A program made the position numbers and the translations under genes. A stretch of DNA of 64,000 nt from an uncultured Chloroflexia bacterium. GTDB lineage: Bacteria; Chloroflexota; Limnocylindria; Limnocylindrales; CSP1-4. Positions within the stretch are counted from its first letter, which is position 1. Every line of letters begins with the position of its first letter. Below, one piece after another: positions 56,648 through 61,462 of this stretch. The notes under the pieces are model-generated. The model ran no database searches. It saw nothing but the letters and a program-made list of their open reading frames with translations, and had not been told where the DNA came from. The stretch is taken from positions 490,535-554,534 of the forward strand of contig CAVQIZ010000005.1 of assembly GCA_963712735.1 (NCBI GenBank), read 5' to 3'.

Positions 56648-56724
56648 CGGGGCGTGGCGCAGCCTGGTAGCGCACTTGACTGGGGGTCAAGAGGTCGCTG
56701 GTTCAAATCCAGTCGCCCCGACCA
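56648..56724 (+). tRNA. tRNA-Pro (anticodon GGG)
   Basis: Acceptor stem CGGGGCG/CGCCCCG, D-arm GCGC, anticodon stem CTTGA/TCAAG with loop CTGGGGG, GTTCAAATC T-loop, encoded CCA. Confidence 0.98.
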
Positions 56725-59153: not shown

Positions 59154-59505
59154 CGCTCGCCATGATGGTATCGGGGTGAGAGCGTGAGACGACAGAAGTC
59201 CGCATCCGCTCCCGATGGCGCCATGACGGCGGAAGCACCTGTCCCACGGCTGCGACATCTGCGCAGGCACCTACTGCTGTGGGCAGCCTTGGCATCGCCG
59301 TGGTCTCGCCGATGTGACTCGCCATGTCCACGCGCCCGACACTCGGCATCGTCCTCGGCTTGAGATCGGCCGGTCTCGCGGTCACGCTGCCCGAGCGCTG
59401 GGCCACCTTCCCGTCGGTCTTGGTGAGGACCCGGAGACGCCGGCGCTCGCCGCTGCCGGGTCGTGGCCCGGAACGGGTGGACCGAAGTGGGAGAATCGCC
59501 GTGAT

Positions 59506-59580
59506 CGCGGGAGGCGATGAGGCACGGCCCGCACCTTGGCCGCCTGAGCCGCGCCGAGCCACTGGCGAACCCGACTCGCG
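59506..59580 (+). ncRNA. c-di-GMP-II-like riboswitch, copy A (variant)
   Basis: P1 CGCGGG/CUCGCG; P2 GGC/GCC; kink-turn GAU-GA...GAG; P3 GGCACGGC/GCCGCGCC; pseudoknot CGCC/GGCG; 3' AACCCGA; TGg-GAGAAT -10 upstream and GAGGGGGG SD downstream. Confidence 0.8.
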
Positions 59581-59593
59581 TATGAGAGGGGGG

Positions 59594-59653
59594 ATGTCTC
59601 TGCACCTCTCGGGCGGGCCCTTCGAAGGCGTCGACCTAGTGCACGAGGACTGA
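59594..59653 (+). CDS. 19-aa small ORF (MSLHLSGGPFEGVDLVHED) or truncated gene downstream of riboswitch copy A
   Basis: Strong SD GAGGGGGG immediately upstream; no similarity recognised. Confidence 0.35.
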   Translation: MSLHLSGGPFEGVDLVHED

Positions 59654-59792
59654 AGGGAGACGTTCCGGGGCAAGCCGTGGACATGGCCAGCTAGCCCCGC
59701 GAGGCGTGCGCCGCAAGAAGCGGGCCGCAACTCCCCTCGAGGGTGGACCGCGGTGCTGAAGGGCTTGGCGTCGAGCGAGCGACAGAGGTGCA

Positions 59793-59866
59793 CGCGGGCG
59801 GCGACGAGGCACGGACATAGCCTTGCCGCCGGGACCGTGCTGAGCCGCTGGCGCACTCGGCCCGAG
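59793..59866 (+). ncRNA. c-di-GMP-II-like riboswitch, copy B (more divergent variant)
   Basis: P1 CGGG/CCCG; C-GGC/GCC; kink-turn GAC-GA...GAG; P3 GGCACGG/CCGUGCU; pseudoknot CGCC/GGCG; 3' CACUCGG; GAAGGGA SD then ATG 59882. Confidence 0.72.
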
Positions 59867-59881
59867 CAGAAGGGATCTGTC

Positions 59882-60613
59882 ATGCACACACTGCAGCGTT
59901 TGCTGGCGGGAGCCGTCGTCATGTCGTTGCTTGGACTGACCGGCGTCGGCGGCGCCAGCGCGGAGGACGAGGACTGGTACAGGTACGACCCGGAGTGGCC
60001 GGTGTGGCACCAGAAGGTGCGGCAGCTCGAGGCAGGGATCGCCGACAATGAGGTGGCGCAGGCGGTCACACGGGTAAGACTCGCCAGCCTCTCCGATACC
60101 TATCGCGGGGCCATCTACCGCCTCTTCAGCCCAGTAGGCTGGGCCACGAGCCTTCAGGCTGCCGAGAACCGGCTGCGCATCCTCCAGATCAAGCGCGAGT
60201 CCCTGGTAGACGAATGGGACCGCGCTCGCAACGAGGTGGTGCGTATCGAGACCGACCCGGAGCGCGAGAGGTTGGCCCAGCTGCGAATGGCAACCCGTCT
60301 GTCAGTCGGCACCGCCTACCCAGAAGACTACGGGGTCGACCCGAGCCAGTTCGTCTTCGGGCCCAACATCGGCTACAGGGTGTCGTGTGCGGCCATGAGC
60401 CGGGACGAGGGCAGAGAGGACCTGGAGATCGGCAGGAAGCCCATCGGCGCAGCTAGCCGCGAGGAGATCGCCGAAGTCATCGCAGGTCCGCTGGAGGGCT
60501 GCGTACCCAACGAGAAGTTCAACGCGAAGCTGATCATCGAGGCGATGACCGTCGATCGCCGAGAGGTCATCGCAACGTACGAGGGCACGCTGCGCACGTA
60601 TCCAGGGAGATGA
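59882..60613 (+). CDS. Secreted hypothetical protein with a coiled-coil region
   Basis: Signal peptide MHTLQRLLAGAVVMSLLGLTGVGGASA|ED; heptad-like helices (LQAAENRLRILQIKRESLVDEWDRARNEV). Confidence 0.75.
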   Translation: MHTLQRLLAGAVVMSLLGLTGVGGASAEDEDWYRYDPEWPVWHQKVRQLEAGIADNEVAQAVTRVRLASLSDTYRGAIYRLFSPVGWATSLQAAENRLRILQIKRESLVDEWDRARNEVVRIETDPERERLAQLRMATRLSVGTAYPEDYGVDPSQFVFGPNIGYRVSCAAMSRDEGREDLEIGRKPIGAASREEIAEVIAGPLEGCVPNEKFNAKLIIEAMTVDRREVIATYEGTLRTYPGR

Positions 60614-60789
60614 TCGACGGGCCCAGGCCCACCACCGGTCTGCTCCACGCGATCCCTCGTGGGGCGGGCCGCGGGAGCTCGCGCCATGCGCACGGTCTAT
60701 CAGCAGACGCACCATGGCCAACCTGGTCGGCTCAGCCGCGGCCGCGTCGGGACGGAACCGGTCGGGTCAGTCGCTCACTCATACCAGTA

Positions 60790-60862
60790 GCGGGAGGCTG
60801 CGAGGCACGGCCCGTCGATTATGGCCGCCAACCGTGCTGAGCCACCGGCGAACCCGACCCGC
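60790..60862 (+). ncRNA. c-di-GMP-II-like riboswitch, copy C (variant)
   Basis: P1 GCGGG/CCCGC; A-GGC/GCC; kink-turn UGC-GA...GAG; P3 GGCACGG/CCGUGCU; pseudoknot CGCC/GGCG; 3' AACCCGA; GGGGGGA SD then ATG 60884. Confidence 0.82.
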
Positions 60863-60883
60863 GCACATCTTGGGGGGACTCTC

Positions 60884-61417
60884 ATGCGTACCCAGCGACT
60901 GTGGTCGGTGGCGACGGTCACCCTGGTGCTCCTGGCCGGGCTCACCGCGGCCGCCGTGGCCCAGGAGGCAGACGAGCACGCGCTCGTCACGCACGTGACG
61001 GGGACCATCATCGGCACGTCCTACGACGACTCGATGGCGAACGTGACGTACGCGCCCGGCGACGGTCACCACGTGGAGGGCGCCCAGTACACCGAGACCA
61101 ACGTCTGGGGCGACCCACGTCTTCCCGCCGACAAGAGGATGATCCTCAACTTCACCACCTATCCGGATGGCGACGGTCAATTCATGGTCACTCACACAAG
61201 CATCCGCCTCGACGGACCGGATGGTGCGTGGGCGGGCACCGGGGTCGGCCTGGCGTACCCGGACGGCACCAGCGAGGGCCAGGACGTGCTCGTCGGCGAA
61301 GGAGCCTACGAGGGCCTCACCGCCGTGCTCTACTGCGGAACGGACATGGGCTGCAGCGGGTCCATCTTCGAGGGCCAGATGCCCGACCAGCCGGGGCCTG
61401 TACCGCCGGTCGAGTGA
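60884..61417 (+). CDS. Secreted beta-rich hypothetical protein
   Basis: Signal peptide MRTQRLWSVATVTLVLLAGLTAAAVA|QE; Gly/Thr-rich strands, LVGEGAYEGL motif. Confidence 0.78.
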   Translation: MRTQRLWSVATVTLVLLAGLTAAAVAQEADEHALVTHVTGTIIGTSYDDSMANVTYAPGDGHHVEGAQYTETNVWGDPRLPADKRMILNFTTYPDGDGQFMVTHTSIRLDGPDGAWAGTGVGLAYPDGTSEGQDVLVGEGAYEGLTAVLYCGTDMGCSGSIFEGQMPDQPGPVPPVE

Positions 61418-61462
61418 CGAGCGGACACCTGCCGGCGGAGCCGCGATGGCGTGGCCCCCCGT

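Follow-up and report, generated by a model that had tools for sequence, protein, structure and literature searches.

The stretch of DNA analyzed here (64,000 nucleotides, referred to as the window) carries three riboswitch aptamers, called copies A, B, and C, of which the middle one is aberrant at the floor of its ligand pocket. Copy B has the sequences GGG-C-GGC and CG-G-CCC in places where copies A and C have GGG-A-GGC and CG-A-CCC or CG-A-CUC, respectively. The locus thereby raises the question whether this C and G record a compensatory double change, the retuning of a working sensor, or the decay of an aptamer. Our reading is that copy B is an aptamer under relaxed constraint whose C-G floor arose as a single-step by-product, an account that we consider somewhat better than an even bet.

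The only above-threshold match that an Rfam scan of the window returned for the c-di-GMP-II-GCG family (RF03170, a variant aptamer reportedly proposed by Weinberg et al. in 2017) is copy A. A permissive scan of 1.8 kb (59300–61100) added copies B and C, each of which spans all 85 model positions (1–85) and scores below the gathering score of 47.9 bits that copy A exceeds. All three copies lie on the + strand, and RF03170 is the best-scoring model for each of them in the competition within clan CL00127, which assigns copy B to this family and not to RF01786; the c-di-GMP-II-type identity given to these aptamers in the first-pass annotation is confirmed. As reference we used the 26 RF03170 matches of this genome (22 above the gathering score, with copy B 24th of 26 by score), a genus set enlarged by 113 matches from 17 same-genus genomes (139 distinct elements aligned; covariance model R1 built from the 26 own copies), and a pooled set of 270 elements that adds 131 from a 401-genome sample of the phylum. 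The three copies and their surroundings comprise the following features:

59501..59585, + strand: copy A aptamer (RF03170), cmscan 63.4 bits with E 8e-11, family model R1 94.2 bits
59594..59653, + strand: 19-codon ORF MSLHLSGGPFEGVDLVHED behind a G-rich Shine-Dalgarno sequence, the only frame directly after copy A
59788..59871, + strand: copy B aptamer, cmscan 44.9 bits with E = 2.3e-6, R1 67.0 bits
59793–59798 with 59861–59866, + strand: helix P1 of copy B, accompanied by P2 as GGC/GCC and the inner six P3 pairs as GCACGG/CCGUGC
59870..59884, + strand: Shine-Dalgarno sequence AAGGGA and ATG (59882) of the gene that would be controlled by copy B, read from the sequence and spaced as in the other copies
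59882..60613, + strand: gene behind copy B, 243 aa with an N-terminal signal-peptide-like segment, no Pfam match
60784..60868, + strand: copy C aptamer, cmscan 43.3 bits with E = 5.5e-6, R1 88.4 bits
60881..61417, + strand: gene behind copy C (from the ORF list), a 178-aa secreted protein without Pfam match

Judging by these alignments, copy B is a genuine paralog of the 26-copy family with its c-di-GMP-II fold. Like RF03170 in general, it has helices P1, P2, and P3 in the order and spacing of the family (cmscan alignment), a complete pseudoknot between CGCC in the P3 loop and GGCG in the 3' joining strand (4 of 4 pairs), and a place just upstream of a ribosome-binding site, with 15 nt from the end of P1 to the ATG at 59882 and thus a 5'-leader placement like that of most of the 26 copies. 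It differs from RF03170 in scoring below the gathering score and in carrying C12 and G61 where the family has A. Tandem riboswitches of the same class have been described, among them 59 c-di-GMP-II doublets and 9 triplets (Sherlock et al. 2022, PMC9481103), and copies A and B resemble these in lying on one strand about 210 nt apart, with only the 19-codon ORF between them, as candidates for a common leader. Unlike typical tandem aptamers, they are more widely spaced and copy A has a Shine-Dalgarno sequence and start codon of its own. Copy A may either have lost its own gene or be part of one leader common to copies A and B; a search of the A–B spacer (59586–59787) for homology to any fetched locus found none.

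The pocket positions are numbered after 3Q3Z, the crystal structure of the canonical c-di-GMP-II riboswitch (Smith et al. 2011). The unpaired A before P2 is position 12 of the Rfam model and corresponds to A13, the P2 pairs join positions 13–15 with 58–60, and positions 61–74 keep their 3Q3Z numbers. In 3Q3Z and the engineered c-di-GMP-II-Bh, the pocket floor is a noncanonical pair atop P1 (A·G in Bh), and the lower ligand base stacks on A8 of Bh, which is A13 of 3Q3Z (PMC13715770). The side of the pocket is lined by the first P2 pair A14-U60 and its ceiling is A61, with A69 reading the upper base, A70 intercalating, and G73 reading the lower base (PMC13715770). Elements with A69-A70-G73 score best with RF01786, those with G69-A70-G73 with RF03169 (GAG), and those with C70 with RF03170, and this sorting of triplet types independently supports our position mapping. 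Together with the structurally described floor, it bears out the placement of positions 13 and 74 at the pocket that had been given in the first-pass annotation.

The residue roles that we assign to copy B are inferred by homology to the 3Q3Z and c-di-GMP-II-Bh structures. Copy A has A12, A61, A68, A69, C70, and G73 together with A74 in its pocket, and the pocket residues of copy C are identical. Copy B shares fold and pocket layout with canonical c-di-GMP-II aptamers (RF01786, 3Q3Z, Bh), and of the canonical contacts A69, A70, G73, A13 floor, and A61 ceiling it keeps A69 and G73, with C70, C12, and G61 at the others. All three copies of the window differ from the canonical type in having C instead of the intercalating A70 and G-C instead of the lateral A14-U60 pair, whereas the Watson-Crick floor and the G ceiling set copy B alone apart. 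We take the name of RF03170 to denote a G69-C70-G73 triplet, by analogy with GAG for RF03169 and AAG for RF01786; compared to this, copies A, B, and C (59569–59573, 59855–59859, and 60852–60856 of the window) and about 141 of the 270 pooled elements carry A69-C70-G73, and most genus copies including copy B thus have A and not G at position 69. The triplet that dominates the genus is neither the parental AAG nor one of the named GAG and GCG variants. All four types (ACG, GAG, AAG, and GCG) occur in the phylum, and they alternate within one tandem array (L041).

This riboswitch family is greatly expanded, with 26 copies in the present genome (L001–L026), further loci across the genus (L027–L098), and up to 31 copies in a congener; tandem gene arrays are frequent. 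The genes that follow the copies encode small secreted proteins in nearly all cases, and most of the 26 copies end 10 to 25 nt before a G-rich Shine-Dalgarno sequence and a gene of roughly 170 to 250 aa with a signal peptide. A consensus scan for promoters and terminators found nothing. Given the position before Shine-Dalgarno sequences and the lack of terminator-like sites nearby, the switches probably act on translation initiation, like canonical c-di-GMP-II riboswitches. Modeling of Shine-Dalgarno accessibility with and without the aptamer in 15 copies gave no consistent ON or OFF direction. GGDEF domains, with 13 matches in this genome and 5 to 10 in each congener searched, are absent from a small-genome sister family that is also devoid of these riboswitches, and this distribution fits a cyclic-dinucleotide ligand; no report of a ligand for the GAG or GCG variants was found in the literature searched.

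Two further features of the family are worth recording. One element of this genome (L018; contig 2 of G000, 459047–459132) and its counterparts in the genus genomes searched form a distinct subtype that is present about once per genome, is of the proper GCG type with an AGC/GC- P2 and a UCGGUCGCC or UCGCCGAAC loop, and in this genome precedes a gene for a membrane protein and not a secreted one. Upstream of most genus copies there are also two conserved promoter-like blocks, 10 to 45 nt before P1, of the form TGGACGCCCGCGAGAGAATC-N7-GCGGG and GGAAC-N15/16-CGACTCATAC-N5-GCGGG. In the window they are located as follows:

about 59470–59500 (copy A), 59705–59745 (copy B), and 60745–60788 (copy C): upstream promoter-like blocks, conserved in most genus copies

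The block of copy B is degenerate (GGTGGACC...GCTGAAG) and displaced by about 30 nt further upstream.

Copy B itself departs from copies A and C or from the wider family at the following positions, which include all differences listed in the first-pass annotation (A13 and A74 at 12/74, as well as 38, 61, 68, and 71) and bear these out as real:

59799, + strand: C at the pocket floor (Rfam position 12 = 3Q3Z A13), able to pair with G74 at 59860
59860, + strand: G at position 74, the floor-pair partner; among 139 genus copies, 73 have G here and 63 have A
59847, + strand: G at position 61, the pocket-ceiling adenine of the c-di-GMP-II fold; A in 267 of 270 pooled elements, with copy B as the sole G
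59824, + strand: U at position 38; G in 137 of 139 genus copies, and 38/72 is G-C in 258 of 269 elements
59854..59857, + strand: C68-A69-C70-U71; C68 (59854) results in C·C with position 40 (59826), and U71 (59857) turns the 39-71 G-C into G·U
59865, + strand: A at position 79, a G·A mismatch inside P1 (G7·A79); C in 114 and A in 5 of 139 genus copies

The two floor positions differ greatly in how unusual they are. Position 12 is A in 131 of the 139 genus copies and C only in copy B and one truncated match, while G74, going by these frequencies, is a common state and not a derived one. The other departures of copy B lie beside the pocket and in the helices. In about 95% of elements, G occupies positions 38 and 39 and C occupies positions 71 and 72, and we infer that these bases form the pairs 38-72 and 39-71, in keeping with the 3Q3Z base triples G·G-C and A·C-G given in PMC7583470, though these columns vary too little for proof. 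U38 would then break the 38-72 pair in copy B; U38·C72 is shared with one other of 269 elements, and G·U at 39/71 is found in copy B alone. The combinations at 40/68 are C·A (160), U-A (55), C-G (32), G-C (11), and C·C (3, copy B among them), and the covariation of these two positions adds one pair to the pseudoknot. The outer part of P3, which is weak, reads ACA in copy B where other copies have CCC. Even the nearest paralog of copy B is only 81% identical, and its four nearest (80% to 81%) have A·G at 12/74 in three cases and A·A in one.

How far these departures exceed ordinary divergence can be read from 30 core columns with a conservation of at least 94% across the genus. Four of these (12, 38, 61, and 71) are altered in copy B, compared to no deviation in 83 of the 139 elements and four or more in only 12, several of which belong to the separate single-copy subtype. 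Of the 48 elements whose variable sites have diverged to a similar extent, 26 are free of such deviations and 10 show a single one, so that 36 have at most one. The predicted P1 formation of copy B lies in the lowest 11% of the genus, in a calculation for which pair probabilities are poor across the whole family given the pseudoknot in the fold. A C12-dependent alternative helix (GGCGGC/GCCGCC) can be drawn for copy B and is suggestive only. The structure used throughout is the Rfam-based one, as an RNAalifold consensus on the 26 copies proved nonnative.

Relaxed constraint on copy B is what several of these results point to: C12 is a singleton set against a common G74, private changes have accumulated at conserved sites, the score has dropped below the gathering score, predicted P1 formation is low, and the locus is unstable, with no orthologue in 20 relatives (see below). 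Arguing in the opposite direction, the scaffold is intact (P2, six P3 pairs, and all four pairs of the pseudoknot), the threaded nested fold has an ordinary energy (-14.9 compared to a median of -14.2 kcal/mol), the Shine-Dalgarno sequence is normal and followed by an intact gene whose shared part has a dN/dS of 0.37, and a C-G floor is tolerated elsewhere. Furthermore, copy B has changed at 13% of conserved columns and at 30% of variable ones, which means that a loss of constraint, should there have been one at all, cannot date back far. Decay of copy B, which had been offered as an alternative in the first-pass annotation, nevertheless fits the data best.

The course of events that we envisage would start from a copy already carrying G74, as half of all copies do, in which a single A-to-C substitution would have replaced the conserved purine-purine floor by a C-G pair stacking onto P1. 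The roughly six further substitutions private to copy B would weaken one conserved contact each: the ceiling of the pocket through A61G, the GG/CC contact beside the pocket through G38U and C71U, the 40/68 pseudoknot pair through A68C (now C·C), P1 through C79A (now a G·A mismatch), and outer P3 through the change from CCC to ACA. Copy B would bind the ligand of the family, presumably a cyclic dinucleotide, weakly or not at all, and it would do so in an accessory and rearranging part of the genome. Established directly are the base states of copy B, how often each of them occurs, and the helices of the family, whereas weakened binding and translational control are proposed.

The locus of copy B is unstable. 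No homolog of its 243-aa protein was found in 20 related genomes, and among 5.8 billion proteins there is only one partial homolog, from a metagenome, that matches the C-terminal 153 aa with 85% identity (dN/dS = 0.37 over the 153 codons common to both genes). From window position 61460 onward, the metagenome contig in question (L100) matches with 91% identity, and of the copy B gene it contains the 3' two-thirds alone, with homology starting inside the gene and unrelated sequence upstream. No aptamer was found before this truncated gene, and with it no orthologue of copy B; a GAGCCAGCCGG...GCCCGC stretch on the contig that was considered as an aptamer remnant is not supported by the covariance model. 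At the syntenic place, neither copy C nor its gene is present (window 60625–61460 compared to L100 4578–4771). The region of copy B is, by this comparison, accessory and rearranging. On L100, a C-like riboswitch and gene lie upstream of the truncated copy B gene, so that the order of cassettes differs. Just upstream of the accessory stretch with the three riboswitch cassettes lies a tRNA gene (56648–56721, 64.4 bits), which could be the border of an integrated island.

The strongest competitor of relaxed constraint, which we regard as a real but distinctly less probable possibility, is that copy B still works as an aptamer but has been retuned. A Watson-Crick floor, a G ceiling, and looser tertiary contacts would then shift its affinity or selectivity, and the ligand level to which its gene responds would differ from that for genes downstream of A-type copies. 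The intact secondary structure, pseudoknot, Shine-Dalgarno sequence, and gene are as expected for such an element, and pocket residues do vary among the paralogs of the phylum, as seen from their four triplet types. Further support for retuning comes from a second lineage. The other C-G case among the pooled elements (L248) belongs to another family of the phylum (genome G036) and scores best as canonical c-di-GMP-II with 54.9 bits. When relatives of G036 were searched and the matches aligned, CAG-C-GGC...CCG-G-CUG was found both in G036 and in another species from the same genus; the element of this second species precedes an orthologous secreted-protein gene and shows a compensatory change from U-A to C-G in P3. 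A third species from another genus has the same C-G floor with a wholly different P3, and a fourth relative (L339), which is the nearest, has A12·G74.

The C-G floor clade thus comprises three canonical-type c-di-GMP-II elements in two genera (L328, L332, and L330), and we conclude from their alignment that a Watson-Crick floor is viable and conserved in one lineage. It follows that a C-G floor alone is no proof of decay, and the intact scaffold of copy B together with this conservation is what keeps retuning in play. The clade resembles copy B in pairing C12 with G74 and in carrying C68, and the combination of C68 with G74 recurs both there and in other elements that look functional. Unlike copy B, these elements keep A61, G38, C71, C72, A69, and A70, their C68 pairs with a G40 that copy B does not have, and their floor is conserved across species alongside the compensatory changes in P3. 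For copy B, this means that C68 lacks the partner seen where C68 is conserved; in addition, G61, U38, and U71 are singletons among 270 elements that no lineage shows selection to keep, P1 contains a mismatch, and there is no known orthologue in which conservation could show.

The first-pass annotation had suggested looking for C13 with G74 in homologs, and the outcome is divided: the combination is conserved in the three elements of the other family, and it was found nowhere in the genus beyond copy B. A pattern scan of 185,579 species genomes for elements without A12 yielded one true element (G12·A74) among the 80 matches listed, most of which were chance matches in GC-rich genomes. A bolder version of the argument would regard the Watson-Crick floor as a recurrent and selected retuning of the pocket in copy B and, independently, in the other-family clade, with copy B as a working sensor of shifted affinity or ligand preference that could generate a two-threshold or two-signal response together with copy A about 210 nt upstream; this seems unlikely to us.

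That positions 13 and 74 changed together under selection, so that P1 was extended by a Watson-Crick pair in a true case of compensatory covariation, is highly improbable, and the family counts already contradict it. It is true that a C-G pair can form here and would stack on P1, that this pair offsets the one lost at G7·A79 and keeps the number of contiguous pairs, and that the C-G combination occurs in two independent lineages. The supposedly simultaneous change is countered by the frequency of G74 itself (14 of the 26 own copies and 73 of the 139 in the genus), which leaves only C12 unusual. Among the own copies, 25 have A at position 12 and only copy B has C, whereas at position 74, 14 have G, 10 have A, and 2 have U, and 13 of the 14 copies with G74 have A12. 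Because G74 was common beforehand, a single A-to-C change suffices for the C-G pair of copy B.

The larger sets agree. Across the genus, 12/74 is A·G in 68 copies, A·A in 60, A-U in 2, and G·A in 2, with one case each of C-G (copy B), C·A (the truncated match), U·G, and A·C. The pooled 270 elements have A·A in 116, A·G in 102, G·A in 30, A-U in 4, A·C in 3, C-G in 2, G-C in 2, and single cases of the rest; G74 with A12 in 102 of them argues that G74 predates C12. Purines face each other in about 92% of these elements, and G12 is found with A74 (30) or C74 (2) and never with G74. C12 also accompanies A74 and C74, which speaks against a joint change. A standard pair occupies 12/74 in only 2.9% of genus cells, compared to 96% for P1, 99% for P2, 86% for P3, and 95% for the pseudoknot in the same alignment, and this does not square with covariation into a Watson-Crick extension of P1. 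Genuine covariation is seen elsewhere in the molecule, for P3 across the 139 genus copies and for the pseudoknot across 269 elements (e.g., 42-66 with G-C in 213 and A-U in 44). These numbers identify 12/74 as a conserved purine-purine pair. The A12·G74 of L339 points to a one-step origin of the C-G floor in the other lineage as in copy B, again without any need for a double change.

Assembly or sequencing errors as the source of the differences are scarcely credible, since, although the metagenome-derived genome is 85% complete and in 8 contigs, at least seven substitutions are scattered over the 75 nt of copy B together with a length difference, and copy B lies inside a 647-kb contig with intact flanking genes and, at 81% identity to its nearest paralog, shows a pattern unlike base-calling error or a paralog chimera.

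Taken by itself, the finding is modest: copy B is one aberrant paralog of a catalogued riboswitch family, and its apparent compensatory change dissolves on comparison with the other copies. That comparison separates pocket positions where change is tolerated (74 and, rarely, 12) from those where it is not (61, 38, 71, 72, and 73). It also shows that a single genus harbors more than 100 natural pocket variants, including a copy with a Watson-Crick floor and a G ceiling, and that a clade with a C-G floor exists elsewhere in the phylum. Together, the variants of the genus and the C-G clade constitute a ready-made mutational series for the binding of candidate ligands.
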